Both the position numbers and the translations under genes were made by a program. Under the pieces are notes generated by a model. That model saw only the letters and a program-made list of their open reading frames with translations. It was not told where the DNA came from and searched no databases. From an uncultured Candidatus Saccharibacteria bacterium (GTDB taxonomy: Bacteria; Patescibacteriota; Minisyncoccia; Phycocordibacterales; CALRHW01), in assembly GCA_964407105.1 (NCBI GenBank), contig CAYOUG010000004.1, positions 6,936 through 70,935 of the forward strand: a DNA stretch of 64,000 nt, written 5' to 3'. This document shows positions 31,400-57,063 of the stretch, one piece after another. Within the stretch, counting starts at the first letter, position 1. Every line of letters starts with the position of its first letter.

Positions 31400-31620
31400 A
31401 TCAAATCACGGCCGGCGGTGCAAACTCCAAAACAAATGTCTATGTGAGCGCAATCGCCGGCCACGGCTTGATACAATACGTTCTATTATTATATTGCCAG
31501 ATCAACATAAACGCAAAACCCCACACGAGGTGGGGGCTTACGTAGACATTTGTTTGTTTTGGCGCAAGCACATGCTCACGCTCACAAACACAACATTATC
31601 AGTTATTGCAACAAAAGTCA
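31400..31620 (-). other. GC-rich structured leader/intergenic element upstream of murB (candidate cis-regulatory RNA or small ncRNA)
   Basis: Local GC spike in AT-rich DNA. Nested inverted repeats: ggccggcg/cgccggcc (31409-31456), cccaca-cgag-gtggg (31527-31542), caaatgtcta(31427-31436)/tagacatttg(31548-31557), gtgagcg(31439-31445)/cgctcac(31580-31592). The swapped arm order suggests mutually exclusive helices. Confidence 0.3.
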
Positions 31621-31644: not shown

Positions 31645-33843
31645 CTATGGATTTCTGCCAGCTTTTATTTCTTTGATGTAAAACTCTCCCTGCTCTTTAA
31701 ATTTTACTGGATCAAGAGCAATAAAATCTTCCAAAGTTTTTATCGCTAAGTCGCGCTGTCCCGCCTCAATGTATCCCGCCGCAAGTGACAATCTATACTG
31801 CGGATTAACCGGATTAATTTCAACACGCTTCTTAAGCATTCCGATCATTGTGTCAAATTGTTTTGTTTGTAAAAACAACATAATAGCCTGATCGTTGAAA
31901 ATTAAGGTGTTTGGATCAATGGTAGCAAATAGTTCTTTAGTAAGTGGTATATTGCCATTTTCAAACGCAGACAACGTATACAACAAACGAACCTGTACAA
32001 ATGTTGGATCTAAATCAAACGCTTCTTTCAAAATAGCGAAAGCTTCAGGAAACTTTTTTTGAATTCTGTATACTTCCGCAATTTCAATCAAAATCGATTG
32101 TTTTTTAGGGCTTAGTTTGTTTGCCTCTTTCAAATACTTAAGTGCGTCATCAAACGCACCATAACGTGATAAAAGAGAACCTAGGAAAAGAGCGTAGCGT
32201 GCATCTGGCTCTGGATTTTCATCAATCTGTTTTTTCATTTCCATACTTGCAGCCTCAAACGCTTTCATACGAATATCTTGTGGAACATCTGGTAAATTTA
32301 TACGTTGTGAAAGAAGTACGAGTTGTTCTCGAGCTTCCGCTTTTCCAAATGTGTTATAACCAATAGATCTTTTAAGTGATTCTACATTTTTAAGATAATC
32401 CTTACTACCGTTTGCCTCTGCAGCAAGACCGTCAAGAATTGCCATGTTTGCCTTCATTGGTTTAACGTTTACAAAATACAAAGTACAAAGAGTCGCTAAA
32501 CTCACAAACACAATGATGCTTTGAAAAACTACGGGCGCAACAAGTGGTTTTTGAGATATTAGAGTAGGAGCATCTGACGGTGTTCGTATAGCATAAACAT
32601 ATGCTACAAGTATCATAAAAAGAATATAACTTGTGAGATTATCGAACACAAAAAGATTTTGGAAAAAATAAGCAGAAATTAAACCAGTAAGAAGAGCTTT
32701 GTCTGTAACAGAAAACAATCCTCCACGACCACGCCAAATGTAATAAAGTAATGCGATAAAAATAGAGAGATAAGAAATAAGTCCCAATAATCCTCCAGCA
32801 ATAAGCCAATCTAGTATTACGTTGTGTGTGCGATCAAACCATTGTTCTTGACCCCACATAAGCGGATCATAATTTTTATTAAAAACATAATTAAAATTTT
32901 CCTGACCCCAACCAAGTATTGGTCTTTCTTTAAAACCCTTAATAGCCATTGGCCATATGTAATAACGTCCCTGACTTTTCAAGAAATTTTCAGACAAAGA
33001 AATTTGGGCAAAACGAAGCATGGTTGGACTTTTTTGTACAAAAGCAGTGTCTTTTATAAGAAAAAACGTAAAAATAACCACAACAATCAAACCAATACCA
33101 CCAAATGCAATTTTTCTAAAAACTTTTCTCTCTCGTTCAAAGATGGCTACAAGTATGGTAGCGATACAAAGACCACCAATAAGTCCAAGGAGCGCACCTC
33201 TTGTTTGTGTAAAATACAATAAATAAAGCTGAAGTGCGATACTTAGTCCATAAAGTATTCTTTCGTAAATTTTTCCTGAACGTGCAAGTAAAAACAGTGC
33301 AATAAATATGTGTATCATCAAATAAGCAGCAAAATATGTAGCATTACCAAGTGTTGCATCCAAACGATCAATGCTTTGATGAACCGCTGTTTTACCAAAT
33401 ATTTGTGGTAGACCATAAAACAAACACAAAATAGTATTTGCACCCAAAGCAATATTAAAAAAATAATGCCATAGTTTTTCTGTAGAAATTATCGTTCCGA
33501 GCATCAAGAAATATACGTATAGATGAAGTAGTGTTACCAAACCTTCCATGCGTTCATAGTTACTCCAAAAACTTCTATAAAAATTAACACCGAAAAAATC
33601 TGCGATTGCAATAACTACAACAAAAATACCAAAACTATAAAGTAACCATGATTTCTTGGGTCGATAAGAAACATCTATGAGTGCAAGCAGAATCCACAAA
33701 GCAAAAGCTAGCTCAATAATAATTTTAAAGACAAAACCTTTGGCAGTTATAAATGGAAAGAAAAACTGATTTAGTACTATAAACGGCACAAACAGTGTTG
33801 CACACAAACCGCACAAGATACTGATTTTAAGAACTTTGGTCAT
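31645..33843 (-). CDS. Polytopic membrane protein with O-antigen-ligase/Wzy_C-like core fused to C-terminal TPR repeats (paralog of 5345-7777)
   Basis: 732 aa. About 12 TM helices, then about 270 aa of TPR-like repeats (AEVYRIQKKFPEAFAILKEAFDLDP; AAGYIEAGQRDLAIKTLEDFIALDP). Same architecture as 5345-7777. Confidence 0.6.
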   Translation of the reverse strand: MTKVLKISILCGLCATLFVPFIVLNQFFFPFITAKGFVFKIIIELAFALWILLALIDVSYRPKKSWLLYSFGIFVVVIAIADFFGVNFYRSFWSNYERMEGLVTLLHLYVYFLMLGTIISTEKLWHYFFNIALGANTILCLFYGLPQIFGKTAVHQSIDRLDATLGNATYFAAYLMIHIFIALFLLARSGKIYERILYGLSIALQLYLLYFTQTRGALLGLIGGLCIATILVAIFERERKVFRKIAFGGIGLIVVVIFTFFLIKDTAFVQKSPTMLRFAQISLSENFLKSQGRYYIWPMAIKGFKERPILGWGQENFNYVFNKNYDPLMWGQEQWFDRTHNVILDWLIAGGLLGLISYLSIFIALLYYIWRGRGGLFSVTDKALLTGLISAYFFQNLFVFDNLTSYILFMILVAYVYAIRTPSDAPTLISQKPLVAPVVFQSIIVFVSLATLCTLYFVNVKPMKANMAILDGLAAEANGSKDYLKNVESLKRSIGYNTFGKAEAREQLVLLSQRINLPDVPQDIRMKAFEAASMEMKKQIDENPEPDARYALFLGSLLSRYGAFDDALKYLKEANKLSPKKQSILIEIAEVYRIQKKFPEAFAILKEAFDLDPTFVQVRLLYTLSAFENGNIPLTKELFATIDPNTLIFNDQAIMLFLQTKQFDTMIGMLKKRVEINPVNPQYRLSLAAGYIEAGQRDLAIKTLEDFIALDPVKFKEQGEFYIKEIKAGRNP

Positions 33844-33919: not shown

Positions 33920-35815
33920 TCACAGGGATTGTATTTTTGTGACCAATGAATCACAGTCAAAACCGTAGTACGCGAGTGTTTCGTGGTTTAAACCACAAAC
34001 AGGTACCTCTGTTAAACCAAAAGAAATTACTGTTGGAAAATCTTTCTTTTGCGCACACTTAGCAGAAAAAACGTTGCCCTGACCAAATAAAACATAATGA
34101 TTATCAAATGTGACAATTTTTTTATATTTTGCAAGATTTTTTTCAAACCAATTATCATTTAATTTATTGAGCCAAGGAAAATTAAACACAGCAACAGAAA
34201 CGCCTTTTTGTTCAAGTTTTGTAGCAGCTTTGTATATTTCTGAAAGCATAATTGGCCCATAGGAAATAATCGCAAGATCTTTTCCCTCTTTTAAACAAGT
34301 TCCCTCTCCCTCTTCAAATCGAGCTTCTGGTGGTAACCTAAAGGGTATATCGTATGGTATAGAAACCAATCTTATATAAGTACTATTTTTATTTTTTTCA
34401 ACTGCCCAACGTATAGCTTTTCTGGTTTCTTCTTCATTACAAGGCTCAATTAAAGTAAGTTTGGGAATTGAACCGAGACATGAAATATCTCGGACAGATT
34501 GGTGAGAATGCCCTGGACCAGAAGGCAACATTCCAGCCAAAGAACCCACATAAATGATTTTTGTCTGTTCTGTAGCGTTGTTATAAATTTGTTCATTTGG
34601 ACGAGTAGAAAGAAAACAAGCAAACGAGTGAACCACCGGAAGCATATTTTTTATTGCAAATCCACCAGCTTGAGATACCATGTCTTGCTCGGCAATACCA
34701 CACTCTACAAATCTTTCAGGAAATTTATTTTTAAATGGAATAAGTCCGGTATCAAGCACAAGATCAGCATCTAAAGCAACAATATCTTTTCTTTCTTCAG
34801 CTATTTTCAAAAGTTCATCACCGTATGCAGAAACTAATTTTTCTGGATTTGATGCAGTTATTTTTACAGGTCGTTCTACTTCTTCTATTACAAGAGTCGG
34901 TAATGAGTAATCTAAAAAATATTTTTGTATTCTTTGAATAATTTCTTCAATTCCTTTTTTGTACAATTCCACACTTGGTGCACCACTATGAAATTTGTAA
35001 TATCCGTCATCAGACATAAGTTCCATAAAAGAAACACCCGCTCCTTTCTTTGTATCAGCAATAATAATCTGTGGGCGGTCTTTTATTGTTTTTGAATAAG
35101 CAATACTGTCTCTTATAGATTCAAAAGAATGTCCATCACATTTAGATACAGCCCAACCAAATGATGCAAATTTCTTTTCAAGATCACCCAGATCACTTAC
35201 TGATTCTACATAAGTGTCTGATTGAATTTTGTTATGATCAACAATAACAGTTATTTCAAAAAGTTTTTCGTTTGCCGCTTGCTGAAGAGATTCCCAAATC
35301 TGACCCTCCTGAAGTTCTCCATCACCAGTCAAAACAAAAAACCTGCCTTCTTTACCATTTAAACGATTTGCCTTCAACATCCCCTTTGCTTTTGAAATAC
35401 CCATTCCTAGTGGTCCGGTATTTGTAATTAAAAATGGAATTGTAATGTCTGGGTGGCCTGGTAAACCACCAAGTCGTCTTAATTGTTTTAAATATGTACT
35501 ATCAAGTTTTCCTAGACCAATCAATAAAGAATACAAACCCGGAACATCATGTCCTTTTGAAGAAAAATATGTATCAGAATTGTTTTCCTTTCCGTTTGGA
35601 TTATTTAATTCTTCTGTCCAAAGCCAAGTAATAATATCCATTGCGCTAAAACTTGATCCAATATGACCAGATCCAGCGTACATGATCATGGAAAGGGTGT
35701 TGAATCTAAAAATATCAGATAAGATACTTGCTCTTTTTATTGGATCAGACACACCAGCAATCACTTTCTGAGTTTCTGATGGCGGAATAAAACAAATATT
35801 TTTTTCTAAATTCAT
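33920..35815 (-). CDS. Transketolase-family thiamine-diphosphate-dependent enzyme (full-length, N-terminal TPP domain plus Pyr domain plus C-terminal domain)
   Basis: 631 aa. MYAGSGHIGSSFSAMDI (cf. transketolase GSGHpG...s..di), GDGELQEGQIWE (TPP-binding GDG...EG motif), central Pyr domain (FIECGIAEQDMVSQAGGFA). Confidence 0.7.
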   Translation of the reverse strand: MNLEKNICFIPPSETQKVIAGVSDPIKRASILSDIFRFNTLSMIMYAGSGHIGSSFSAMDIITWLWTEELNNPNGKENNSDTYFSSKGHDVPGLYSLLIGLGKLDSTYLKQLRRLGGLPGHPDITIPFLITNTGPLGMGISKAKGMLKANRLNGKEGRFFVLTGDGELQEGQIWESLQQAANEKLFEITVIVDHNKIQSDTYVESVSDLGDLEKKFASFGWAVSKCDGHSFESIRDSIAYSKTIKDRPQIIIADTKKGAGVSFMELMSDDGYYKFHSGAPSVELYKKGIEEIIQRIQKYFLDYSLPTLVIEEVERPVKITASNPEKLVSAYGDELLKIAEERKDIVALDADLVLDTGLIPFKNKFPERFVECGIAEQDMVSQAGGFAIKNMLPVVHSFACFLSTRPNEQIYNNATEQTKIIYVGSLAGMLPSGPGHSHQSVRDISCLGSIPKLTLIEPCNEEETRKAIRWAVEKNKNSTYIRLVSIPYDIPFRLPPEARFEEGEGTCLKEGKDLAIISYGPIMLSEIYKAATKLEQKGVSVAVFNFPWLNKLNDNWFEKNLAKYKKIVTFDNHYVLFGQGNVFSAKCAQKKDFPTVISFGLTEVPVCGLNHETLAYYGFDCDSLVTKIQSL

Positions 35816-35826
35816 ATGTTTATTTT

Positions 35827-37479
35827 TTATTTATCAAAATTACCACCAGATTGAAATCTTTTAAATGCAACGGTTGTGTCTCCGGCATTTGTCACCCTTG
35901 CTTTATCATGAAAATCAACATAAACCTGTTTTATATATGTTACTTCATCGATACTACCAGCTTCACGACCAAAACCAGAATCTTTTATACCACCAAAAGG
36001 TTTTCCTTCTTCTGCTCCGGTGGTTCCACGTCCAATATAAAACACACCAGTTTTTACACGTTCCATACATCGCATTGCAAGAGGAATATTATGCGTGAGA
36101 ATTGCATTACTCAAACCGTAACGAGATTTATGTACCATATCAAGAGCATTCATTAATGCCTTCTCATTTGTTTCACCATCAAATGACATCACTGAAATAA
36201 TAGGACCAAACACCTCATCAGACATGGTCGGACTATTAAATTTTGTCTCAGTAAGAATGGTTGGGGTACAATAATTACCATTTTTATTTTCTATTTTACC
36301 GCCACACAAAATTTTAGCGCCGGTTTTTACACTTTTATCTATTGCAGATTTTATATTTTTTAAAGAAGATTTATTTATGACCGGACCCATATCGGTTTTT
36401 TCTTCTGATGGATCTCCTACTGTATATTTTTGAGACTGATCCACCAATCGAGAAATAAAATTTTTATATATATTTTTGTGAACAAAAATAGCACGGAGAG
36501 CAACACATCTCTGTCCAGAATCACCAAATCCAGCAATTATTGATTCAGATACTGCTCTTTCGATATCAAAATCATCCATTAAAATAATTGATGCGTGTCC
36601 ACCAAGTTCAAGACTAACCGGTTTTATGCGGGCACCAGCTTTTTGTGCTATTAATGCTCCTGTAGCTCTAGACCCTGTAAACAAAATTTTGTCATAATCC
36701 CCCTTCTCAACAAGTATATTTCCAACGGTAGCACCGATACCGTGCACAACCTGAATAATATTTATAACTTCTTTTGCATGACCACCCAACACTTCTTCTA
36801 GAACTTTATGAAATAAGAAACAGAAAAAAGAAAGTGCAAGGGGTGTTTGTTCAGAATCCTTCAAAATAATTGCATTGCCACCAGCAAGCGCTGCAAACAT
36901 TTTGCGTGCTGGTAAAACCAAACTAGAATTCCATGGTGTTATTCCCAATATCACACCATAAGGTTCACGCGTTGAAATAGAACTCTTGTCTTTCATTTGA
37001 GAGCGAGAAAAAGAACCTTGTATACGAGAAATTTCTCCATGAAAATGCCACAAACTATTTAACATTCCTTGCACTTCTGCATCAGCAAATTTCCAAAGTC
37101 TACCACCCTCCTCCACTTGAATTTTTACAAAAGTGCCCCGATGTTCTTCAACAAGTTGAGCTGTTTTTTGAAAAATTTTTTCTTTTTCTTTTTGACTAAC
37201 CTGAAAATGCCAATATTCCTGAGCCTTACGTGCATCTTCACATAAAATTTTTATCTGTCTTTCTGAAAGATCTTTAATAAAATATATAGATTTTTGGTTT
37301 GCTGGATTGATTATTTCAAATTCACTAGCGCCACCACCGTTTTGCCAAGACCCAGCAAAAAAACTTTGAACATATTTTTTGTTATTTTCTTTTTTAATTG
37401 AAAAAATCTTCTTTTCTGCTTCTTTAATAAGTGTCATAAAATTCATATTACCACGCAGTCCAACCGCCATCGACAACAA
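35827..37479 (-). CDS. Aldehyde dehydrogenase family protein
   Basis: 550 aa. SLELGGHASIILMDDFD (ELGG(K/N)) and GQRCVA (catalytic Cys) motifs. The real start may be an internal Met, since the 5' end overlaps the SDR gene by 32 nt. Confidence 0.8.
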   Translation of the reverse strand: MLSMAVGLRGNMNFMTLIKEAEKKIFSIKKENNKKYVQSFFAGSWQNGGGASEFEIINPANQKSIYFIKDLSERQIKILCEDARKAQEYWHFQVSQKEKEKIFQKTAQLVEEHRGTFVKIQVEEGGRLWKFADAEVQGMLNSLWHFHGEISRIQGSFSRSQMKDKSSISTREPYGVILGITPWNSSLVLPARKMFAALAGGNAIILKDSEQTPLALSFFCFLFHKVLEEVLGGHAKEVINIIQVVHGIGATVGNILVEKGDYDKILFTGSRATGALIAQKAGARIKPVSLELGGHASIILMDDFDIERAVSESIIAGFGDSGQRCVALRAIFVHKNIYKNFISRLVDQSQKYTVGDPSEEKTDMGPVINKSSLKNIKSAIDKSVKTGAKILCGGKIENKNGNYCTPTILTETKFNSPTMSDEVFGPIISVMSFDGETNEKALMNALDMVHKSRYGLSNAILTHNIPLAMRCMERVKTGVFYIGRGTTGAEEGKPFGGIKDSGFGREAGSIDEVTYIKQVYVDFHDKARVTNAGDTTVAFKRFQSGGNFDK

Positions 37480-38254
37480 TATTAGAACCCGTCATATATG
37501 ATGATGCGTCAGAAACAAGAAAAAGTAATGCACCGTTAAACTCATTTCTTTTTGCCATTCTACCCATTGGCACAAGTGAATTATAATTTTTCAAAAACTC
37601 TTCATCTTGATTATTGAATACTCCACCTGGAGTAAGTGTATTAACACGAACATTTTTTTTTGCCCAATAGGTTGCAAGATATCTAGTTAAATTCAAAACG
37701 CCTGATTTAGAAACACTGTACGCTACCGGTTTCACAAAAGGTACCGCTGTTTTTGCTTTTCGATATTCATAAATAGATTGATTTGGCGAAACCAATCCAT
37801 AAGTCGAGCAAATATTTACAATACTTCCACCACCTTTTTCTGACATTTTTCCACCTATAACCTGACAACATAAAAAAGTTCCTGTTAGCGTTACATTCAT
37901 AACAGTATTCCAGGTTTTAATAGAATAATTTTCAAAAGATTGATTTTCTTTTGGATTTGCACCGGGAGGAGAATCTACTGCGGCATTATTTACAAGAATG
38001 TTAGGTGTACCCCAATTAATTTCAATTTCTTTTAGAGCTTTTTCTATTTGTTTTTTATTAGTAATATCTAGTGTAAACAATTTTATTGGATATTTTTTTG
38101 AAAGTTTTTTCAATTCTTCATTTAAGATTTTTGTAACATCAAAAATAGCAACTTTTGTTCCAGACAACACCAGAGTTTTTACATACTCAGTGCCAAGCTG
38201 GCCATTTCCACCAGTTACCACGGCGATCTTTCCTTTTATATTAAATTCTTCCAT
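37448..38254 (-). CDS. Short-chain dehydrogenase/reductase (SDR) family oxidoreductase
   Basis: 268 aa. KIAVVTGGNGQLGTEYVKTL (TGxxxGxG Rossmann motif), NNAAV, and S...Y..AK catalytic motif (YSVSKSG). Confidence 0.85.
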   Translation of the reverse strand: MEEFNIKGKIAVVTGGNGQLGTEYVKTLVLSGTKVAIFDVTKILNEELKKLSKKYPIKLFTLDITNKKQIEKALKEIEINWGTPNILVNNAAVDSPPGANPKENQSFENYSIKTWNTVMNVTLTGTFLCCQVIGGKMSEKGGGSIVNICSTYGLVSPNQSIYEYRKAKTAVPFVKPVAYSVSKSGVLNLTRYLATYWAKKNVRVNTLTPGGVFNNQDEEFLKNYNSLVPMGRMAKRNEFNGALLFLVSDASSYMTGSNIVVDGGWTAW

Positions 38255-38277
38255 TTTTAATTAATTTTTAATAAAAA

Positions 38278-39426
38278 TTAAATCGAAATATGTTCTTTTG
38301 TAATAACAGAATCTTCTGAAATATCTACTTTTGCTTTTTTCCCAACAATTAAAGACAGTTGGTATGGTTTAAGGCCGTGACCAGGACTTTTAAATACAAT
38401 CATGTTTGCGGTAATTTTTGTTCCGGCAACAATATGATGTTTTGCCACAAGACTTTTGCTATGTTTTTCGCGTGCTGGCTTTTCTTCTTCAAGAATTTCT
38501 TTTATATGAACATGACCAATAGCTTTTTCAATACGTCGGGTGTGTTCTATCATTGTCTTAAATTCTTCAACATCCAAACTTACTGTAGCATGATCTGGTC
38601 CAGGAAGAGTTTTATCTATAGTAATATGACGTTCAATACATCTTGCTCCAAGTGTAGCTGCTGCAACAGAAGGCTCAAAACCTTTTTCGTGACCAGAATA
38701 TCCAACGGGTAATGGTGCATATCGCTCCGCTAGCATCTGCATAGTGGACAAACTAATCTTGTCGTCTGGAGTTGGATATATAGACACACAGTGAAGAATA
38801 GAAAGTTTGTTTGTATATTTTAAAACCGTCGCAATAGCATTATCAAGTTCCTCTAGAGTTGCCATGCCAGTAGAAAGAATTATTGGTTTCTCTTTTTTTG
38901 CAACATACTCAATAAGTGGAATGTTTGTAACATCAAAGGATGCAATCTTATAAACATCAACGCCAACTTTATCAAGAAAATCTGCACTTTTTTTATCAAA
39001 AGGTGTTGCAAAAAAAGTTATCTTTTCTTTTTCTGCAACTTTTTTTAAATTTACAAAATCATCAAAACTAAGCTCGAGGTGTTGGCGATATTCTCCGTAT
39101 GTTTTACCCAGCTCCAAATCTTTCACTTGTGGCTTGTTTCTAAGTTCTTTTGCAAAAACCTCTTCAATGTGTCGCTTTTGAAATTTAACGGCATTTGCAC
39201 CAATACGAGCAGATTCTTCAATAAGTTTTTTGGCGAGAAAAAAATCTCCATTATGGTTGTTGCCTATTTCTGCAATAAAATATGTGGGGCAATTCTCTCC
39301 AATATATGTTGACTTTATTTTTATTCTATTCGGCAATGCTTCTATATATTTTATGAGATTAGAGAACGCGGTGCTGAATATGTTGGTCATAAAATGCTGA
39401 GAATTATTGAAATAATAAACAGCCAC
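38278..39426 (-). CDS. NeuB-family nonulosonic acid (sialic-acid-like) synthase with C-terminal SAF domain
   Basis: 382 aa. YFIAEIGNNHNGDFFLAKKLIEESARIGANAVKFQKR matches the NeuB/PseI/LegI signature (IAEiG.NHnGd...A..mi..A...GadavKfQ). C-terminal SAF/antifreeze-like domain present. Confidence 0.85.
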   Translation of the reverse strand: MAVYYFNNSQHFMTNIFSTAFSNLIKYIEALPNRIKIKSTYIGENCPTYFIAEIGNNHNGDFFLAKKLIEESARIGANAVKFQKRHIEEVFAKELRNKPQVKDLELGKTYGEYRQHLELSFDDFVNLKKVAEKEKITFFATPFDKKSADFLDKVGVDVYKIASFDVTNIPLIEYVAKKEKPIILSTGMATLEELDNAIATVLKYTNKLSILHCVSIYPTPDDKISLSTMQMLAERYAPLPVGYSGHEKGFEPSVAAATLGARCIERHITIDKTLPGPDHATVSLDVEEFKTMIEHTRRIEKAIGHVHIKEILEEEKPAREKHSKSLVAKHHIVAGTKITANMIVFKSPGHGLKPYQLSLIVGKKAKVDISEDSVITKEHISI

Positions 39427-39465
39427 AGTATATGCAAAAACGACTTTTTACGCAACACAAAACGA

Positions 39466-40242
39466 TTAAGGCAAATGCTTGGTTGCTTCCACGTTTACAC
39501 CGGTTGCAAGCCACCAAAAAGATGTGGTTATAAGCCATTCAAATGTTTTAGATAGAAAAACTGAAACATAAGGAAACCAACCATCAAAAGGTCTCGGTAG
39601 TAAACGAATATTATATGCAACAATACGAACATTGATAAAACCGTTTTTCTCTAAAAGTTTTTTATATCTACTTGGTATATATTCTCTATGAAAAATATTT
39701 TTTGTTTTCTTTCCATTCAACAAACGCACAAATTTTGCTATTGGGGTAAGTACGTGACGATCCCACAAACGCACCGGACTAAATCTATTTGGTAAAGAAA
39801 CAATGAGTTTACCACCATTTTTTAAAACTCGAGACATTTCACGAATAGCAATTTCATCATCATCAACATATTCAACAAGTCCCATAGCAACCACAACATC
39901 AAAAGATTCATTTTCACTTGCAATATGTTCTACTGTACCTACCTGAAAATGTACCCACGGTAATTCTTCTGTTCTTTTTTTTGCCTCTTCTATCATTGCC
40001 AAAGAAATGTCTATTCCAACATATTTCCAACCCAAATCGGTTATTTCTTTTGTCATCACTGCTGGACCACAACCAATATCAAGCACAGCACCATTGCCAC
40101 CTCCAAGAGATTTTAAAAGTTGCTCCTTACGAATACGAAATGAATAACCCTCTGGGGTTTCTTTTTTGTAATGTTCAGCATATTCGAAAGGATTCTTGCT
40201 AAAATATTCTGTTACGGTTGATTGGTTTTTAGATATATTCAT
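39466..40242 (-). CDS. Class I SAM-dependent methyltransferase
   Basis: 258 aa. GAVLDIGCGPAVMTKEITDLGWKYVGIDIS (motif I) and VLKNGGKLIVSLP (motif post-II/III). Confidence 0.8.
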   Translation of the reverse strand: MNISKNQSTVTEYFSKNPFEYAEHYKKETPEGYSFRIRKEQLLKSLGGGNGAVLDIGCGPAVMTKEITDLGWKYVGIDISLAMIEEAKKRTEELPWVHFQVGTVEHIASENESFDVVVAMGLVEYVDDDEIAIREMSRVLKNGGKLIVSLPNRFSPVRLWDRHVLTPIAKFVRLLNGKKTKNIFHREYIPSRYKKLLEKNGFINVRIVAYNIRLLPRPFDGWFPYVSVFLSKTFEWLITTSFWWLATGVNVEATKHLP

Positions 40243-41276
40243 ATAAAGTGTTCAAACATTGATTTTATACTAGGAACCACATTTGAAACAAGGGCTACAA
40301 AACGAGCATGACCATATTTTGTGTAATCAAGACTTATTCTGGGTAATGCATATTTTAAAGAATTAGAAGATACTCGACCAGAAAGAGTCGCCCAAACAAG
40401 GGGTATTTTTTGTTCATTAAATACCCGAACCGTGTCTTCATTCCAATCGTCTTCTTGTCCATTTGGATGAGCAAAGTGAACACACTGTCCTATTTGGTTT
40501 TTTATAACAGAAAAACTATTAGAAATTTCTTGTGTTTGTTCAAAATAAGACTGTTGAGAAAGTATTGGATGTGTCACGGTGTGGGCGCCAATGGTTACGT
40601 TATGGTTTTGCATTTCTTTCATATCATCCCAAGTAAGTGGAGAAAAGTCGGTATTTTGTGACGATTCAAAATCTAATAATATTTTTGTCTGCAAAAACAA
40701 AGTAGAAAGTATCTCTTCGCGTATAGATACAGAATATTTTTTTAAGCGTTGACGAATATCGTTGTCAGCAACTTTTTTTTCTTCAATAGAATGAAGGGGG
40801 TAAATTATTTTTTGTTTAGGAAAAACAACAGTAATAGATGGTTTTGTGGTTTTACTTATCATATACTCAAGTCTATCTGGCCACAAAAAAGATTTTTTAT
40901 CAACAAAATCTGTTGTCACAAAGATTGTCGCTGGCACATCATATTTCTTTAAAACAGGAAAAGCTGTTGTGTAATTATTTTTATAACCATCATCAAAAGT
41001 AATGGCACAAATGTTTTTTTTAGTGTAATCATTTTCCTGCACCATTTTTTCAACCACAGACAAAGGAACAATTTCAAAATGTTTTTTAAGCCACTTTATT
41101 TCCCGCTCAAATTCTGAGACAAAAACATGTTTACCACGATAATTTAAAATACCATCTTGAATATCTTTATTGGTGACGCCGTGATATAAAACAACAAGAG
41201 GTTTGTATCTAAAAAACCAACACCCAAGTCGTGCAATTAATGATATTGCAAAAAAATTCATCAAAATACGTTTCAT
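40239..41276 (-). CDS. Polysaccharide deacetylase (NodB-homology, CE4) family protein
   Basis: 345 aa. ICAITFDDGYKNNYTTAFPVLKKYDVPATIFVTTDFV (TFDDG motif 1) and HTVTHPIL (His motif). Confidence 0.8.
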   Translation of the reverse strand: MKRILMNFFAISLIARLGCWFFRYKPLVVLYHGVTNKDIQDGILNYRGKHVFVSEFEREIKWLKKHFEIVPLSVVEKMVQENDYTKKNICAITFDDGYKNNYTTAFPVLKKYDVPATIFVTTDFVDKKSFLWPDRLEYMISKTTKPSITVVFPKQKIIYPLHSIEEKKVADNDIRQRLKKYSVSIREEILSTLFLQTKILLDFESSQNTDFSPLTWDDMKEMQNHNVTIGAHTVTHPILSQQSYFEQTQEISNSFSVIKNQIGQCVHFAHPNGQEDDWNEDTVRVFNEQKIPLVWATLSGRVSSNSLKYALPRISLDYTKYGHARFVALVSNVVPSIKSMFEHFI

Positions 41277-41288
41277 GTTTTAATACAA

Positions 41289-42143
41289 TTATTTTACTCT
41301 TTCAAAAACACAATTAAATAAAGTTGTGCTTTTTCCTTTTCCAAGCGGGTGTTTATCAACCAAAACAAAACCTGCTTCTAACATTATTTTTTGAATAATA
41401 TCGCTGTGTGCCTTTTGTGTTGTATCAATTTCAACAATGACCGAACGAAGTTGTGGCTTTTTAAGTGTATTACGAGCGCCTTCAAGTACCCCCAATTCCA
41501 CACCATCAACATCAATCTTTATTAAATTTGGTATTGGAATATTAAAAGTATTTATAAAATTATCCAAACTATAAGCTAATACTGGCTGAATATTTGTGTT
41601 TGAAATATCAAAATGATCAAAAAGCATGTGTTGTGCAGAACCAGCACCCATATCTGAATAATTAAATCCAGATATTTGTGTAACACCTGACAGTGCCACA
41701 CATAGGGGCACAATTTTTTGAGATAAATTATTGAGAATAATATTTTGACTTAATGAAACAAAAGTAAAAAAATTAGGCTCAAATGCGTAAACAATGCACT
41801 GTGTGTCTGCTTTGGCACTAGCAATAAAAGAATAAGCTCCAATATTTGCACCGATATCATAAAAAACATCTCCGGATTTTAAGTTTTCTTCAATCCACTG
41901 AACAGTTTTTGGTTCTTTTGTGCACGGTGTTAATCTGGCAATTTCTGTAAAAGAATTCAAAACAATCGGAATTTCTTTTTTAGAATAATCAAGAACACCT
42001 TTTGTTCCACCATATTCTTTTTTTGCAATTCTGATGACATCAAAAACACCGACACGCCCAACATCACGAAAACTATATGTTTTTATGTATCTAAAAGTGT
42101 TCCATAAAAAACTAGGAATAATGTGTTTAAAAAAAATTTTCAT
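41289..42143 (-). CDS. FkbM-family methyltransferase
   Basis: 284 aa. DIGANIGAYSFIASA...VYAFEPNFFTFVSL matches the FkbM domain (DiGAN.G.y......VyAFEP). Confidence 0.7.
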   Translation of the reverse strand: MKIFFKHIIPSFLWNTFRYIKTYSFRDVGRVGVFDVIRIAKKEYGGTKGVLDYSKKEIPIVLNSFTEIARLTPCTKEPKTVQWIEENLKSGDVFYDIGANIGAYSFIASAKADTQCIVYAFEPNFFTFVSLSQNIILNNLSQKIVPLCVALSGVTQISGFNYSDMGAGSAQHMLFDHFDISNTNIQPVLAYSLDNFINTFNIPIPNLIKIDVDGVELGVLEGARNTLKKPQLRSVIVEIDTTQKAHSDIIQKIMLEAGFVLVDKHPLGKGKSTTLFNCVFERVK

Positions 42144-42145
42144 AA

Positions 42146-42880
42146 TTATTTTGCACCCTCATTTCTTTTGTTAATCAAAATTTCTGCAAGCAAAAAATCT
42201 TCTAATGAGTCAATGTCTATAGACTCATTTTTTGGAACAATATGATATAAAACACGCTTCCCCGCCATTTCTTTTTTTTCTATAAGAGTGTTCCAACGAA
42301 GTGCTATTACATCTACGTGCTGATAGGCCTCAGGAAAAGATTGTCTTGGCATATTGTGCGCATCTTTCAAACCAGTAAATTTTTCTGATAAAAATGGAAC
42401 GATTGTATTATTTTCAATTTTCCACAATTTATAGGGGTGTTTTGAAGCTTTTATGATTGTTCTAGAAGAATCAGCACTTTCATCATTCATTAATAGTTCA
42501 ACACATGCGTCTATGTGTTCTGTTGTGCATAGTGGTGATGTGGGAGGCAAACGAAGTATGATATCTGCTTTAAAATTTTCATTTTCTTTCATCCGCATTG
42601 CGGCATGAAAAAGAAAATCAAAATCTGGAACAGAATCAAGAGCAAGCTCTGGTGGTCGAATAAAAGGTGCTTCTGCTCCATACTGTTTAGCAATATTTGC
42701 ATACTCTTCAGAATCAGTAGAAACAATAAGTTTATTAATATATTTAGATTTTAGACCAGCTTCAATAATCCAAGCCATGAGTGGTTTACCAGCAAAAAGT
42801 TTTATATTTTTATTCGGAATACCTTTTGAGCCAGATCTCGCTCCAACAACACCAAGTACATTATATTTCTTATTAGCCAT
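42146..42880 (-). CDS. Acylneuraminate cytidylyltransferase family (CMP-nonulosonic acid synthetase, NeuA/PseF/LegF-like)
   Basis: 244 aa. VLGVVGARSGSKGIPNKNIKLFAGKPLMAWIIEAGLKS matches the CTP_transf_3 N-terminal signature (iiPAR.gSkgipnKnl..l.gkPli.wti). Confidence 0.85.
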   Translation of the reverse strand: MANKKYNVLGVVGARSGSKGIPNKNIKLFAGKPLMAWIIEAGLKSKYINKLIVSTDSEEYANIAKQYGAEAPFIRPPELALDSVPDFDFLFHAAMRMKENENFKADIILRLPPTSPLCTTEHIDACVELLMNDESADSSRTIIKASKHPYKLWKIENNTIVPFLSEKFTGLKDAHNMPRQSFPEAYQHVDVIALRWNTLIEKKEMAGKRVLYHIVPKNESIDIDSLEDFLLAEILINKRNEGAK

Positions 42881-42889
42881 AAATTATTT

Positions 42890-44275
42890 CTAATCTTTAA
42901 GTGCGGACATCACAGCCAACGCAACGCGTTGTGCAGATTTTCCATCAAGTTTATATAGAAGTTTTTGTTGAAGCTCTTTTCGACCCAAAGTATCTTGAGA
43001 AGAATTTTTCAAATACAAATTAATATAAGAAACGAGTTCTTCTGGACTTTTTGCAATACGCACGCCTCCAGTTTTTATCACATTTGTATAATGATCTCTA
43101 TCATAATTTCTAATCATTGATCTCCAATAATCAAGTTTTTGAAAACCATCAAATCCCACCAAAACCACAGGCTTATCTAGTGCCGCAGCATCAAGGGTCA
43201 TTGTTGACTCTGTGTTTACGGTCACATCGCTATGTTTTATTGAATTTGCAAGATGAATAAGATCTTTATTTGTAAATGTCCACTGAAGAGCAACAGATGC
43301 AGAGGTGTCAATTGATCTCTCAGTATTAACACCGAAATATTTACCCGGACGATCCATAATAAAATGGTTCAGATTTTTTAAACCCTCACCCGTTGCTGGA
43401 TATTTGGGATGAAAACGCGCAAGCACCTGAACGGGTTCGTCAAATTTTCCTTGCTCAATAGCATTATTAAGACCAATCATCACCTCATGAGTATAAGGAT
43501 TTTTCCAATCACCCGGCACAGCAAATAAAATCAATTTTTTATTTATATCTGCACCAATTTCTTTGAAAAATTCTTCTCTAGAAACATAAATAGATTGATC
43601 TATATAAGCATCAAATTGGGGAAAGCCACAAATTATTATTTTGTTTGCATTATAATCTCCTATATCTATAGCCTCTTCTTTGTTGTATTCATTAAAAACA
43701 ATAAGTTTGTCGGCTTTTACTCGAGTAAAAGCTTTTGTTGTAAGCACATCCCAACTTTTTACAGTAGTGATAGTTTTTACACCGTGTTTTTTTGCGTATC
43801 GTACAAGTCTAAAATCTTCCGCTGAAAACATACTTGGCGAAAACAGTACGTCTGGATTATATTTTTTAAAAATATCGCCAGCATAATTGTCTGGTAAAAA
43901 ATAGTATGTTGCACGTATAAACTCACGCCACATACGAAATTTTCCCAAAAAACCACAAATTCGCTCTATTGCATAACGAATTTTCTTTTTATGCACCAAA
44001 TACATATCATGTCGACGTAAAAACACAGAGTATGTTGGAATGCTATTCCATCCCAAATGATGGAATATGCGCTCAGCTTTTGTAAGTGCGTATGGCAACA
44101 ACTCTATATAGACATTTTTATCTCCAAAATTTTCCTTATAATATTCAATTCTATCTTTTGAGCGCACGAGTAAAACAAGGGTGTGACCAGCATTTTTTAA
44201 TATAGGAAAAACGTTAGTGCGTAAAATATTTTTTTCCGTATCGCCATCGTAAAGAGATATGAAAATTGTGCTCAT
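42890..44275 (-). CDS. Hypothetical protein, possibly a GT-B-like (TagF/capsule-type) transferase
   Basis: 461 aa, soluble. Weak resemblance of the C-terminal half (ILFAVPGDW...; SDVTVNTESTMTLDAAALDKPVVLV) to glycerophosphotransferase/capsule-biosynthesis GT-B enzymes. Assignment is tentative. Confidence 0.35.
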   Translation of the reverse strand: MSTIFISLYDGDTEKNILRTNVFPILKNAGHTLVLLVRSKDRIEYYKENFGDKNVYIELLPYALTKAERIFHHLGWNSIPTYSVFLRRHDMYLVHKKKIRYAIERICGFLGKFRMWREFIRATYYFLPDNYAGDIFKKYNPDVLFSPSMFSAEDFRLVRYAKKHGVKTITTVKSWDVLTTKAFTRVKADKLIVFNEYNKEEAIDIGDYNANKIIICGFPQFDAYIDQSIYVSREEFFKEIGADINKKLILFAVPGDWKNPYTHEVMIGLNNAIEQGKFDEPVQVLARFHPKYPATGEGLKNLNHFIMDRPGKYFGVNTERSIDTSASVALQWTFTNKDLIHLANSIKHSDVTVNTESTMTLDAAALDKPVVLVGFDGFQKLDYWRSMIRNYDRDHYTNVIKTGGVRIAKSPEELVSYINLYLKNSSQDTLGRKELQQKLLYKLDGKSAQRVALAVMSALKD

Positions 44276-44315: not shown

Positions 44316-45740
44316 GTGATTTCAGAAACAAATGCGTGGCTACGACGACATAAAATAGGTGTTGCTATCTTTTTTTTCGCACTGGCCATACGTCTATTTT
44401 TCATTTTATCAGCACCGCCAGAAAAAATTACTACTTTTGCTTTGGGTGCAGATGGTTCAGACTACGCAAACGAAGCTCTAAATATCGTAAATGGACACGG
44501 TTTTAGTAGAAATATTCAGACTCCGTTTTTGCCAGACATGATCCGTACACCCATTTACCCCCTCGTTCTGGCCTTAGTTTATGTGTTATTTAATAGTTTT
44601 TATCCAATACTTTTTTTACAAGCATTATTATCTTCGTGTATTCCGCTTATAGGAATGTCACTTATGAGACTTTTTAGTGATAAAAAAAGTAGTGTACTTG
44701 TGGCTGGTTTAGCTCTTGCAATAGAACCCCACATGGTTTTTTACACGATATTTTTTACATCAGAAACAATATTTGTTCCTTTGTTTTGTATTTTTATTTA
44801 TACGTTTGTTAAATGGATGATAAATCAAAAAATCTCTTATCTAGCTATCGCAAGTATAACGCTTGGCGTCGCAACCCTCACTCGTCCAATTTCTATACTT
44901 ATACCAATACTTTGTATTGGATGTGCTCTCATTTTGTATCAAACACACAAAAACAAAAATATCCTTGTTCACATTGGTATATTTATTTTAATATTTATTG
45001 CCACACTTTCTCCATGGATGATACGAAACAAAATCCAATTTAATACTTTTTCAATTTCAACGGTTGGTTGGTTTAATGTTTATACTCGTTTTACTACAGA
45101 CATAATGGCTACCCACAATAAAACAGATTTTTACACCTCATATCAACGCAATTTAGATATTCTATCCATAAAAGGATACGTAAAACATCCCCCACCCGTA
45201 AGTGAGCTAGAAATACAAAAAGCAGAATTTATGCCGATTTTGAAAAAAGAATCTATTGAAATTATTCAAAGATATCCAAAAGATTTTTTAATTGTATCTA
45301 CCCTTGCTGCACTTTCTGTTTTAACTCAAGACAACACCCTAAACATTCTTGAAACAAATTGGGAAATAAAAAGCAAACGACCCTCACTCTCACCAACACT
45401 TTATTTTGCGCAAAATGGTTTTAAAAAAACATTTTCCTATCTATTACCTTACATACATGGGACATATATAATTCCTTATATAGGAAGAGCCTTGTGGACA
45501 CTCGTATTTATAATGACTATTTACGGATTTTTTGTAATACAACAACATAATAAAGAAAAAAAAATACTCGCAACGTTCTTGTGTTCGATCATTATATACT
45601 TTATTATTTTTACTATTAACGCCAGCCCGCAAATAGATGGTCGTTATAGAACACAGTTTTTTATTTGTGAGCTTGTACTATGTTTGGTGGCTTTTGAACA
45701 TTTAATACAATATACAAAAAAACAAAAGAAAATTTCATGA
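44316..45740 (+). CDS. GT-C superfamily membrane glycosyltransferase (PMT_2/ArnT-like, GT39/GT83-type), paralog of 49336-50745
   Basis: 474 aa, about 11 TM. N-terminal region ...GADGSDYANEALNIVNGHGFS...TPFLPDMIRTPIYPLVLALVY is typical of dolichyl/undecaprenyl-phosphate-sugar dependent GT-C enzymes. Shares the F(L/I)PD..(R/N)TP.YP..LA motif with 49336-50745. Confidence 0.6.
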   Translation: MISETNAWLRRHKIGVAIFFFALAIRLFFILSAPPEKITTFALGADGSDYANEALNIVNGHGFSRNIQTPFLPDMIRTPIYPLVLALVYVLFNSFYPILFLQALLSSCIPLIGMSLMRLFSDKKSSVLVAGLALAIEPHMVFYTIFFTSETIFVPLFCIFIYTFVKWMINQKISYLAIASITLGVATLTRPISILIPILCIGCALILYQTHKNKNILVHIGIFILIFIATLSPWMIRNKIQFNTFSISTVGWFNVYTRFTTDIMATHNKTDFYTSYQRNLDILSIKGYVKHPPPVSELEIQKAEFMPILKKESIEIIQRYPKDFLIVSTLAALSVLTQDNTLNILETNWEIKSKRPSLSPTLYFAQNGFKKTFSYLLPYIHGTYIIPYIGRALWTLVFIMTIYGFFVIQQHNKEKKILATFLCSIIIYFIIFTINASPQIDGRYRTQFFICELVLCLVAFEHLIQYTKKQKKIS

Positions 45741-46444
45741 GTTATCGTACTATTATCGTCATACCGACATACAACGAAAGAGAAAATATTGCTGTTCTGA
45801 TACCGCAAATTTTTGAATATTTACCGAATACAAGAATTTTTGTTGTAGACGATAATTCACCAGACAACACTGCAGAAATGGTATTTTCATTACAAAAACA
45901 ATATCCACTTGTTTCACTCACAAGTCGATCTGAAAAAAATGGCCTTGGTTCAGCATATATTCATTCGTTTAATTTACTTAAAAAGGAAACTGATATTGAC
46001 TGGGTTATTACAATGGATGCCGACGGCTCACATCATCCAAAATATATCGCTGATTTTATTAAAAAATTTGATGAGGCAGATTTGGTTATTGGTTCGAGAT
46101 ATACAAAAGGTGGGGGCATTAAAGATTGGGAGTGGCATAGATATTTACTTAGTTTTTTTGGTAATTTATACGTCAGAACTCTACTAAGATTACCCATTAA
46201 AGATATTACTGCTGGTTATAATTGTTATAAAAAATCAACCCTTGATGAACTAAATTTTGATTTAATCAGAGCAAATGGTTATGCCTTTCAAATCGATATG
46301 AAAACGCATTATTCAAAACAGGGTAAAAATATAGTAGAGGTACCAATTATTTTTACAGGAAGAGTTGGTGGAGAAAGTAAAATTAGTGGTTCTATTATTT
46401 TAGAGGGTCTAAAATACCCCTTTCGATGGTTATGGAAAAAATAA
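45737..46444 (+). CDS. GT2 polyprenyl-phosphate sugar synthase (Dpm1/GtrB-like)
   Basis: 235 aa. IIVIPTYNERENIAVLIPQIF...RIFVVDDNSPDNT...DADGSHHP matches dolichol-phosphate mannose synthase-type GT2. Start overlaps the upstream GT-C gene by 4 nt. Confidence 0.85.
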   Translation: MSYRTIIVIPTYNERENIAVLIPQIFEYLPNTRIFVVDDNSPDNTAEMVFSLQKQYPLVSLTSRSEKNGLGSAYIHSFNLLKKETDIDWVITMDADGSHHPKYIADFIKKFDEADLVIGSRYTKGGGIKDWEWHRYLLSFFGNLYVRTLLRLPIKDITAGYNCYKKSTLDELNFDLIRANGYAFQIDMKTHYSKQGKNIVEVPIIFTGRVGGESKISGSIILEGLKYPFRWLWKK

Positions 46445-47950: not shown

Positions 47951-47952
47951 TT

Positions 47953-49308: not shown

Positions 49309-49335
49309 TGTAATTTATTAATAAATGCTCAATTA

Positions 49336-53268: not shown

Positions 53269-53307
53269 TATCTCATAAAAATGATAAAAATCCTAACAGA
53301 AAATTTC

Positions 53308-53745
53308 TTATAAAATTGTTTCCGACACCGTTTTAAATATAAAAAATTTGTAAATAAAAAAACTTACTATCGCCAAAACACCACTAATCAAAATCTGTGA
53401 CAACATATAGTGTAAATAAAAATGATCTACGAGAATATAAAGAGCGATTGTATTAATAACAAGGTTTACGAGACCCAAACAAAAATGGAGAATCATTTGA
53501 ATATGAATATTGTGTCTTGACATATCACGAAACGTCCAAAATTTTTGAAGAACAAAACTAGCAAAAAAAGCGACCATATACGCAATAATGGCTGAAAAAA
53601 TATACCAAACATAAATATACTCAACCAAAATATGAAGAAGAAGTAAATCTAAAAAAGCAGCAGTTCCACCCGACACTAAAAAACGAAATACTTTTTTATA
53701 CTTATCACTATGATTGTCTAAATGTCGGTTGATAAAATTAATCAT
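53308..53745 (-). CDS. GtrA-family membrane protein
   Basis: 145 aa, 4 TM. FRFLVSGGTAAFLDLLLLHILVEYI...AYMVAFFASFVLQKFWTFRD matches the GtrA signature. Confidence 0.8.
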   Translation of the reverse strand: MINFINRHLDNHSDKYKKVFRFLVSGGTAAFLDLLLLHILVEYIYVWYIFSAIIAYMVAFFASFVLQKFWTFRDMSRHNIHIQMILHFCLGLVNLVINTIALYILVDHFYLHYMLSQILISGVLAIVSFFIYKFFIFKTVSETIL

Positions 53746-53748
53746 ATT

Positions 53749-57053: not shown

Positions 57054-57063
57054 AAATATTCGC

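Follow-up and report, generated by a model that had tools for sequence, protein, structure and literature searches.

A conserved gene cassette with a NANS-type NeuB synthase and a transketolase-like enzyme in an uncultured Candidatus Saccharibacteria bacterium

A stretch of 64,000 nucleotides of DNA from an uncultured Candidatus Saccharibacteria bacterium, a member of the ultra-small Patescibacteria (candidate phyla radiation), was analyzed (the window, to which all positions refer as a whole) with respect to a set of nine same-direction open reading frames (ORFs) on the minus strand (33920-44275), which are spaced by 2-39 bases or overlap by a few bases. Among them are the genes of a NeuB-family synthase, a NeuA-type CMP-transferase, a short-chain dehydrogenase/reductase (SDR), an aldehyde dehydrogenase (ALDH) and a thiamine diphosphate (ThDP) enzyme resembling transketolase (TK-like). 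Quite likely, they form a widely conserved cassette, in which a synthase of the animal NANS type leads to a CMP-activated ulosonic acid that is modified by the SDR, the TK-like enzyme and the ALDH.

Nonulosonic and related ulosonic acids are major determinants of bacterial surfaces, and their biosynthesis is usually sorted into the routes to N-acetylneuraminic acid (Neu5Ac), pseudaminic acid (Pse), legionaminic acid (Leg) and ketodeoxynonulosonic acid (Kdn). The locus suggests another such route of wide distribution, in which bacteria use a phosphate-dependent synthase of the animal type for the first step. Its front end is like that of known routes; the conserved SDR/TK-like/ALDH modification module is new in that no described counterpart was found. 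A search of the full-text literature revealed no paper describing the cassette or linking a transketolase to nonulosonic-acid clusters or sugar-acid biosynthesis, and nothing relevant on nonulosonic acids of Patescibacteria or on bacterial ulosaric-acid biosynthesis.

Domains were assigned with Pfam and NCBIfam profile scans (Table 1). A first-pass annotation, made from the sequence of the window, had read the nine genes as one nonulosonic-acid enzyme set. The positions and domains of the NeuB-family synthase and the NeuA-family CMP-transferase could be confirmed, as could every domain named for the ThDP-dependent transketolase-family enzyme, the ALDH, the SDR, the CE4 deacetylase, the FkbM protein and the second S-adenosylmethionine (SAM) methyltransferase. 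As members of one set, the TK-like enzyme, the ALDH and the SDR were retained, whereas the CE4 and Methyltransf_11 genes turned out to be local accessories.

Conservation of the cassette

By scanning one genome per species, 80 loci were collected, which were annotated by phmmer with the window proteins and whose ORFs were clustered. A TK-like gene scoring above 450 bits is present in 37 loci, and its neighbors were counted on the same strand within 8 kb. SDR and CMP-transferase genes were each found in 28 of the 37 loci, ALDH genes in 27 and NeuB genes in 26. A KdsC-like phosphatase gene accompanies the TK-like gene in 13 loci (15 if whole loci and either strand are considered); of the 26 loci with NeuB, 13 have it behind NeuB on that strand, and it is missing from this window. 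The commonest gene order is NeuB-KdsC-SDR-ALDH-CMP-transferase-TK. The hosts belong to at least ten phyla, among them Melainabacteria, Chloroflexota (including SAR202), Gamma-, Alpha- and Deltaproteobacteria, Acidobacteriota, Actinomycetota, Verrucomicrobiota, Planctomycetota, Elusimicrobiota and Patescibacteria.

The same scan yielded 46 ordinary split TKs, none of which has cassette neighbors. Since the set recurs at the 37 TK-like loci and at 0 of the 46 ordinary loci, the association of the genes is not due to chance. The conserved core consists of NeuB, KdsC in part of the loci, SDR, ALDH, CMP-transferase and TK-like gene, and FkbM, of which a homolog adjoins the cassette in 7 of the 37 loci, is a recurrent accessory. 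Furthermore, a TagF-like glycosyltransferase (GT) gene is present in 10 of these loci and a Capsule_synth-like one in 8 others; both flanking GT types are from families for which the use of CMP-ulosonates is known.

Most of the close homologs of NeuB and of the TK-like protein that have a named host come from Patescibacteria/Parcubacteria (Buchanan-, Niyogi-, Sung-, Kaiser- and Colwellbacteria). Around two patescibacterial NeuB homologs, NeuB, SDR, TK and ALDH lie together, along with CMP-transferase, FkbM and TagF-like GTs. Vampirovibrio, Vicinamibacterales and Curtissbacteria have TK-like homologs with 56-62% identity; the genes of Vampirovibrio are arranged as Capsule_synth GT, NeuB, KdsC-type phosphatase, SDR, ALDH, CMP-transferase and TK-like gene. 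A Niyogibacteria genome carries a HAD phosphatase gene (HAD_2-type) directly after NeuB. Heptose genes beside this Niyogibacteria cassette were considered as a substrate supply and rejected, as they constitute a complete GDP-heptose set of their own.

In the Buchananbacteria genome GCA_013359225.1 (locus L001), a complete Pse-type set (1504-7944) is located directly upstream of the cassette. It comprises PseB-, PseC- and PseF-like genes, DUF218, NeuB, GNAT and a Capsule_synth-like GT. Since the Pse set includes a NeuB and a CMP-transferase of its own, the cassette in L001 is a second, separate pathway, and two distinct CMP-activated ulosonic acids seem to be produced from this one genome.

The NeuB-family synthase

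The window protein contains a NeuB domain (266.7 bits) and an SAF domain (43.4 bits), both above the Pfam gathering cutoffs, and stays below the NCBIfam equivalog cutoffs of NeuB_NnaB (328.7 vs. 399.65 bits) and PseI (254 vs. 340.25 bits). Residues are numbered according to Neisseria meningitidis NeuB (NmNeuB), whose sequence was obtained from the PDB alignment. Like the cassette NeuBs, the window protein keeps the catalytic and metal-binding residues E25, K53, Q55, K129, Y186, H215, H236 and D247. Compared with NmNeuB, E134 is replaced by Asp, F288 by Lys and R314 by Ser. This D134/K288/S314 signature is found in nearly all cassette NeuBs of every phylum; PseI-like and other NeuB paralogs at the same loci have, like NmNeuB, E at position 134, F (I, T, L) at 288 and R (K) at 314. 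R314 of NeuB binds the N-acetyl group of the substrate.

Human NANS, the sequence of which was verified by an exact match to SIAS_HUMAN, has D, K and a non-Arg residue at the three positions. It matches the window NeuB with 231 bits and 36% identity, compared to 152 bits for NmNeuB, and groups with the cassette NeuB clade in a neighbor-joining tree. E134D and the loss of R314 are hallmarks of eukaryotic NanS, and a survey from 2021 placed no bacterial sequence within its eukaryotic NanS clade (PMC8208679). When placed against the known clades, as suggested by the first-pass annotation, the synthase falls below both equivalog cutoffs and into a NANS-like clade, so that the reading of an unusual set stands.

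The phosphatase encoded directly after NeuB in many other loci is KdsC/KDN-9-P-phosphatase-like. Together, the NANS-type residues, the similarity to NANS and this gene indicate that the cassette NeuB would use a sugar 6-phosphate. As the cassette has no amino-sugar genes, we infer mannose-6-phosphate, converted to Kdn-9-phosphate, as the simplest substrate.

For the detection of the usual partner genes, every window ORF of at least 120 aa was scanned with Pfam, and a phmmer search that used NeuC-, PseB-, PseC- and HAD-type probes drawn from related loci was extended to all ORFs down to 70 aa. By both methods, no homolog of Epimerase_2/NeuC, Polysacc_synt_2/PseB-LegB or DegT/PseC-LegC could be found in the 64-kb window. 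A HAD phosphatase was likewise not detected, and the window thus holds no phosphatase gene for the cassette. The lack of NeuC, PseB/PseC and LegB/LegC, which the first-pass annotation had pointed out as an oddity, is therefore real, but the puzzle is removed by the type of synthase: an enzyme of the sugar-6-phosphate-using, animal-NANS-like type needs none of these genes.

The transketolase-like enzyme

The TK-like protein has all three TK domains, but scores below all NCBIfam TK and DXS cutoffs (NF004559, 365 vs. 488 bits). Its best solved match is human TKT (196 bits). For an analysis of the active site, 33 TK-like members were aligned with 46 ordinary split TKs and human TKT. H37, H77, H110, D155, N185, H258 and H(428) are kept in all 33 TK-like members and E366 in 32; these residues serve in cofactor binding, deprotonation of the C3 hydroxyl and binding of the C1 hydroxyl. 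In contrast, R318, S345, H416, R474 and D424 are each replaced in 32 or 33 of the 33 members, the window protein included. R318 is changed to V/I/S, H416 to L/Y, R474 to S/I/N, S345 to D (32/33) and D424 to P (33/33). The ordinary split TKs keep R318 and R474 in 46 of 46 cases, H416 and D424 in 42 and S345 in 39. In transketolases, R318, S345, H416 and R474 form the sugar-phosphate clamp, and D424 is the Asp that takes part in acceptor binding and contacts the C4 hydroxyl of the donor. Family-specific invariant residues include K142, Y273 and R442, and the motif GPGHSHQSVR stands in place of GEDG(A/P)(T/S)HQ.

Judged by these residues, ThDP chemistry on a ketol donor is predicted to be retained, while the phosphate clamp and the Asp for the donor C4 hydroxyl are lost. 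Both losses fit a non-phosphorylated ketol donor with a ring oxygen in the place of the 'C4' oxygen; in the substrate considered below, it would be that of the pyranose.

The enzyme has the three-domain architecture and the invariant ThDP/Mg-binding and catalytic His and Glu residues in common with human-type and split bacterial transketolases, but its gene is linked to NeuB and CMP-transferase genes and not to those of the pentose-phosphate pathway. A housekeeping pentose-phosphate transketolase was rejected due to the loss of the phosphate-binding residues and the conserved synteny.

These results also bear on the assumption of an ordinary Neu5Ac, Pse, Leg or Kdn pathway whose canonical genes are located elsewhere, with TK, ALDH and SDR as housekeeping neighbors by chance. 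Only 64 kb of the genome are visible, the compact genomes of Patescibacteria often put unrelated genes into one operon, and a complete Pse-type set adjoins the cassette in L001. Nevertheless, such a pathway is regarded as highly improbable, since the same neighborhood recurs across ten or more phyla and no ordinary TK was seen in it, the clamp needed for pentose-phosphate transketolase activity is absent, the NeuB lacks R314 and misses both equivalog cutoffs, and the Pse set of L001 owns a separate NeuB and CMP-transferase.

For proteins that are currently annotated merely as 'transketolase' and 'N-acetylneuraminate synthase', the residues provide annotation rules: loss of R318, H416 and R474 with D424 changed to Pro for the TK-like enzyme, and D134/K288/S314 for the NeuB.

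SDR, ALDH and CMP-transferase

The SDR matches adh_short_C2 with 161.5 bits. Its best NCBIfam matches, all below cutoff, are PRK09186, D-mannonate oxidoreductase and gluconate 5-dehydrogenase, and KduD is also among the relatives. Solved relatives include the NADP mannitol 2-dehydrogenases 3gdf and 7krg and the gluconate 5-dehydrogenase 1vl8. The nearest characterized relatives oxidize the penultimate carbon of polyols or sugar acids, resulting in ketols.

The ALDH (Aldedh, 422 bits) contains the motifs ELGG, GQRCVA with the catalytic Cys, and EVFGP. The best match of its ortholog from Methylobacter is the alpha-ketoglutaric semialdehyde dehydrogenase GucD (414 bits, below cutoff), an enzyme acting on the omega-semialdehyde of a 2-keto acid.

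For the CMP-transferase, CTP_transf_3 scored 87 bits, PseF 134 bits (cutoff 205.7) and the KdsB models at most 42 bits; its best solved relatives are CMP-NeuAc synthetases and not KdsB. It is a putative activating enzyme of a 2-keto-3-deoxy sugar acid.

In two Chloroflexota loci (L031, 6854-11887, and L032, 6879-11899; Dehalococcoidales and SAR202), an ALDH-less variant of the order NeuB-KdsC-SDR-CMP-transferase-TK was found. A replacement for the ALDH, e.g., an aminotransferase as confirmation of an aldehyde intermediate, was sought there and none is adjacent. As SDR and TK-like gene stay paired in these loci without the ALDH, an action of the ALDH as the last enzyme of the three fits.

Proposed pathway

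A pathway to a CMP-activated, tail-modified 3-deoxy-2-ulosonic acid is proposed tentatively, its chance in full being somewhat short of even. In step 1, the NANS-type NeuB would condense phosphoenolpyruvate and a sugar 6-phosphate, most simply mannose-6-phosphate, to a product of the Kdn-9-phosphate type. In step 2, a phosphatase would free the C9 hydroxyl. This enzyme would have to act first, because a free C9 hydroxyl would be needed for the TK-like cleavage; it is of the KdsC type in most other phyla and of the HAD_2 type in the one related Patescibacteria locus.

The C6-C9 tail of the dephosphorylated Kdn-type acid is a mannitol-like polyol. In step 3, the SDR would oxidize the C8 hydroxyl, giving a terminal ketol (HOCH2-CO-CHOH-). 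Transketolase donors need the D-fructose-like (3S,4R) configuration. By textbook stereochemistry, C8 oxidation would generate just this end, since the Kdn tail stems from mannose, as in the conversion of mannitol to fructose. The TK-like ThDP enzyme would then cleave the C7-C8 bond in step 4, removing a two-carbon unit and leaving a C7 aldehyde, which the ALDH would oxidize to the carboxylate in step 5, so that a 3-deoxy-hept-2-ulosaric acid, a diacid of the Dha (3-deoxy-D-lyxo-hept-2-ulosaric acid) type, is formed. Oxidation by the ALDH would pull the reversible cleavage forward. In step 6, the NeuA-type enzyme would activate the ulosaric acid with CMP. Finally, in step 7, the TagB-like GT (elsewhere one of the Capsule_synth type) would add the sugar to a surface glycan, the FkbM protein probably acting in O-methylation. 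This glycan is presumably built by the Wzy_C/TPR protein and the neighboring large cluster of GT and methyltransferase genes.

In this scheme, the domain identities, the conserved synteny, the residue signatures of the NANS-type NeuB and the TK-like enzyme and the linkage of a phosphatase in other phyla are results of the analysis, whereas the nature of the sugar phosphate, the sequence of steps 3-5, the truncation and what becomes of the C2 unit are inferred. The side-chain truncation chemistry itself is at most as probable as the pathway in full, and thus a tentative proposal too. More doubtful is the further-reaching claim that SDR, TK-like enzyme and ALDH are a new side-chain-truncating module, which converts a C9 ulosonic acid to a C7 3-deoxy-2-heptulosaric acid, with the first ThDP enzyme known to cleave the side chain of a nonulosonic acid and the first Dha-type route to be described; it is considered rather unlikely. 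As regards the first-pass annotation, which had expected a chemically unusual nonulosonate or related acid, an unusual, carbon-rearranged ulosonic acid is the best reading of a product predicted from the genes.

Several points weigh against the truncation. The matches of SDR and ALDH are broad, all below curated cutoffs and compatible with other substrates. In the TK-like pocket, three basic residues are gone and an Asp is new, with no obvious fit to a carboxylate-bearing substrate, although K142 and R442 might compensate for the lost residues. As a transketolase, the enzyme would have to pass the C2 unit to an acceptor, of which there is no sign; a sugar phosphate acceptor would not be held by the remodeled pocket, and release of glycolaldehyde or another acceptor has to be assumed. 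Step 2 depends on an enzyme encoded elsewhere, because the window has no phosphatase gene. From mannose-6-phosphate, the product would be the L-arabino isomer and not the known D-lyxo Dha. The product is predicted only from gene content and residues.

Further objections come from related loci. In some actinobacterial and Ignavibacteria loci, the TK-like gene is found with or without NeuB and lacks SDR and ALDH: the TK-like genes of L035, L036, L060 and L083 (Gaiellales, Solirubrobacterales) and L030 (Ignavibacteria) have 42-51% identity, NeuB adjoins them in L036 and L083, and none of the five has a nearby SDR, ALDH or CMP-transferase gene. A search for replacement oxidoreductases in these loci revealed only methyltransferases and proteins without a Pfam match. 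In L006 (from ERZ25039492) and L010 (from a metagenome-assembled genome of Cyanobacteriota), the genes SDR-TK-ALDH precede those of a NeuC-like Epimerase_2 protein and a CMP-transferase, with no NeuB within 10 kb. Because the trio is paired with a NeuC-like epimerase there, it is suggested to act on more than one backbone, possibly also an N-acetylated one.

For the same three enzymes, other activities were weighed. SDR and ALDH could oxidize the C9 alcohol via the aldehyde to the carboxylate, which would result in a nine-carbon ulosaric acid, while the TK-like enzyme would do something else, e.g., decarboxylate an 8-keto-9-carboxylate tail and thereby shorten the chain by one carbon. SDR, ALDH and ThDP enzyme are all present and conserved, the sequence from alcohol to aldehyde to acid is a common two-enzyme logic, and the ALDH ortholog resembles semialdehyde dehydrogenases. 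But the nearest relatives of the SDR are dehydrogenases of secondary alcohols at the penultimate carbon, SDR and TK-like gene occur together where the ALDH is missing (L031, L032), and the invariant residues binding the C1 hydroxyl of the donor favor a ketol over an alpha-keto acid. Moreover, either extra oxidation steps would be needed or the TK-like enzyme would be left without a role. Oxidation at C9 is thus judged unlikely.

A chain extension was also considered. Here, the SDR would generate a C9 aldehyde, to which the TK-like enzyme would add a two-carbon ketol from hydroxypyruvate or a ketose, giving an eleven-carbon diulosonic acid. Transketolases are reversible, and irreversible in the synthetic direction with hydroxypyruvate; in addition, the catalytic machinery of the TK-like enzyme is intact and two loci lack the ALDH. 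The extension is nevertheless very unlikely, as it would leave the ALDH, which 27 of 37 loci encode, without a role and as a competitor for the aldehyde, the relatives of the SDR act on secondary alcohols and no donor-supplying gene is conserved in the cassette.

Finally, the trio might leave the ulosonic acid alone and make the aldose-phosphate substrate of NeuB or a small acyl or ether substituent of the glycolyl, glyceroyl or lactyl type, to be attached at a later stage. C2 units derived from TK feed glycolyl groups in some natural-product pathways, and nonulosonic acids often bear unusual acyl groups, e.g., Pse5Am7Gra in Tannerella. This supply function appears quite unlikely in view of a TK-like enzyme that has no sugar-phosphate-binding residue and is ill suited to central sugar phosphates, of a conserved set without acyltransferase, ligase, carrier protein or kinase, and of a Kdn-type sugar that has no amino group for acylation.

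Comparison with known systems

In the Kdn pathway of Bacteroides thetaiotaomicron, a Kdn-9-phosphate synthase, a KdsC-type Kdn-9-phosphate phosphatase and a CMP-Kdn synthetase act in succession. With this route and the animal NANS/NANP/CMAS route, the cassette shares the NANS-type residues, a NeuA-type CMP-transferase and, in related loci, the KdsC-like gene, and none of the three needs UDP-sugar-modifying enzymes. The Bacteroides enzymes are likened by description only. The conserved SDR, ALDH and TK-like enzyme have no counterpart in either route; furthermore, the window is without a phosphatase and the cassette proteins are below curated cutoffs.

For the modification module, conceptual precedents are known. 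In the Kdo8N pathway of Shewanella, the alcohol dehydrogenase KdnB and the aminotransferase KdnA modify the tail of an ulosonic acid via an oxidized intermediate. In the sulfo-transketolase pathway of sulfoquinovose degradation, a transketolase acts on a ketose bearing a non-phosphate group. Both are precedents in concept only, as enzyme families and products differ and neither joins ThDP cleavage with an ulosonic acid.

The predicted product is of the same sugar class as Dha (3-deoxy-hept-2-ulosaric acid), a likeness that is predicted from genes alone and in which the isomer expected from mannose-6-phosphate (L-arabino) differs from D-lyxo. The biosynthesis and the activated form of Dha, a sugar of plant rhamnogalacturonan-II (PMC12168206), are still listed as unknown (PMC12168206, PMC3355719). 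If the truncation chemistry is true, the cassette would be the first genetic handle on heptulosaric-acid (Dha-type) sugars. The locus also indicates that Patescibacteria, despite their reduced genomes, devote genes to an elaborate acidic glycan on their surface, a point of relevance to their attachment to host cells.

Glycosyltransferase and accessory genes

The 461-aa protein, which the first-pass annotation had left unassigned as GT-B-like, can be assigned, as a putative member, to the TagB/F-like CMP-ulosonate transferases by its Glyphos_transf and BFO_1060-family matches. The former is weak (36.7 bits); the latter, which covers nearly the whole domain, has 60.4 bits (E = 1.6e-16), the cutoff being 200. 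The protein is TagB/TagF-like, distantly related to the family of nonulosonic-acid transferases from Tannerella, and a putative CMP-ulosonate/ulosarate transferase. BFO_1060/Tanf_01245 is a genetically proven transferase of Pse/Leg derivatives in Tannerella forsythia (PMC5420450). With the Tannerella forsythia transferases (Tanf_01245, TFUB4_00887, BFO_1060) the window GT has the BFO_1060 domain and the TagB/F match in common, and its gene lies directly upstream of the CMP-transferase gene; it differs in reaching only 60 of the 200 bits and in being known from sequence alone.

The FkbM protein (Methyltransf_21, 80.7 bits; TIGR01444, 86 bits, above cutoff) probably O-methylates the sugar acid or the glycan. 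The second, class I SAM methyltransferase has only sub-threshold NCBIfam matches (UbiG, BioC, Tam); in other loci only weak matches of about 30-41 bits were found, and it stands beside the cassette in this window only.

The CE4 deacetylase (Polysacc_deac_1, 83.5 bits) has the metal/catalytic motifs TFDDG and HTVTH, as expected for the Asp-His-His metal triad, and a hydrophobic N-terminus. Its best NCBIfam matches, far below the cutoffs, are PgaB and IcaB. By phmmer, no CE4 homolog was found in the other 36 TK-like loci, this window being the only one with a CE4 gene beside the cassette. Due to the hydrophobic N-terminus and the PgaB/IcaB matches, it is more likely a glycan de-N-acetylase acting on the finished glycan than a precursor enzyme. 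The CE4 gene as a sign of an N-acetylated precursor was rejected on the grounds that it shows no conservation along with the cassette and encodes a seemingly membrane-anchored, PgaB/IcaB-like protein.

Operon structure and genomic surroundings

Two start sites deviate from the longest ORFs listed in Table 1. The most likely start of the ALDH (539 aa) is the ATG at 37446, one base past the SDR stop. For NeuB, a start at 39390 (370 aa) is most likely, because an identical 370-aa database protein (P0001) begins there.

Table 1. Features of the cassette and its downstream region in the window.
Feature	Position	Strand	Domains or evidence
TagB/TagF-like GT-B glycosyltransferase, 461 aa	42890..44275	-	Glyphos_transf, BFO_1060-family domain
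NeuA/PseF-type cytidylyltransferase, 244 aa	42146..42880	-	CTP_transf_3
FkbM-family SAM methyltransferase, 284 aa	41289..42143	-	Methyltransf_21, TIGR01444
CE4 deacetylase, 345 aa	40239..41276	-	Polysacc_deac_1
Class I SAM methyltransferase, 258 aa	39466..40242	-	Pfam Methyltransf_11/25/31
NANS-type NeuB-family synthase + SAF	38278..39426	-	NeuB, SAF
Classical SDR, 268 aa	37448..38254	-	adh_short_C2
Aldehyde dehydrogenase (ALDH)	35827..37479	-	Aldedh, full length
Transketolase-like (TK-like) ThDP enzyme, 631 aa	33920..35815	-	Transketolase_N + Transket_pyr + Transketolase_C
Wzy_C (O-antigen ligase/polymerase-like) membrane protein, C-terminal TPR repeats	31645..33843	-	Wzy_C 81.5 bits + TPR families
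GC-rich terminator-like hairpin then T run	31519..31535	-	Consensus match only

The Wzy_C/TPR gene follows the TK-like gene on the same strand after a gap of 76 bases, and a homolog comes after the cassette in the Buchananbacteria locus L001, too. The transcription unit probably runs on through this gene and ends at the hairpin at 31535-31519. A promoter scan resulted in 58 sites compared to a mean of 68 in shuffled controls, and hence in no promoter above chance. Only 40 bases separate the start of the operon's GT gene (44275) from a divergent gene of a PMT_2-type GT on the plus strand (GTG at 44316), which leaves very little space for two promoters.

Upstream of the operon, a large cluster of GT, methyltransferase and flippase genes is located (44316-60533). 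It contains at least seven SAM methyltransferase domains, including a methyltransferase-GT2 fusion (47953-49308), as well as the PMT_2-type GT, a GtrA-like protein, a GT47-like protein and the flippase. This methyltransferase-rich cluster suggests a heavily methylated surface glycan. It is followed on the minus strand by genes of a HerA/TrwB-like (DUF87) ATPase and, beside it, a DUF4015 putative glycosyl hydrolase (60576-62459 and 62481-63692).

At the other end of the window, a 2497-aa ORF without a Pfam match (8284-15777, minus strand) is followed by an fn3-domain protein and four unmatched ORFs (15781-20799, minus strand); the region 8284-20799 may be a large surface/adhesion module of a kind common in Patescibacteria. 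Between the gene of a TPR protein and this giant ORF lies the RNase P RNA of bacterial class A (7902-8246, minus strand; 108.5 bits at a gathering score of 100). Furthermore, a tRNA-Phe(GAA) and a tRNA-Arg(CCT) are encoded on the minus strand at 245-320 and 771-843.

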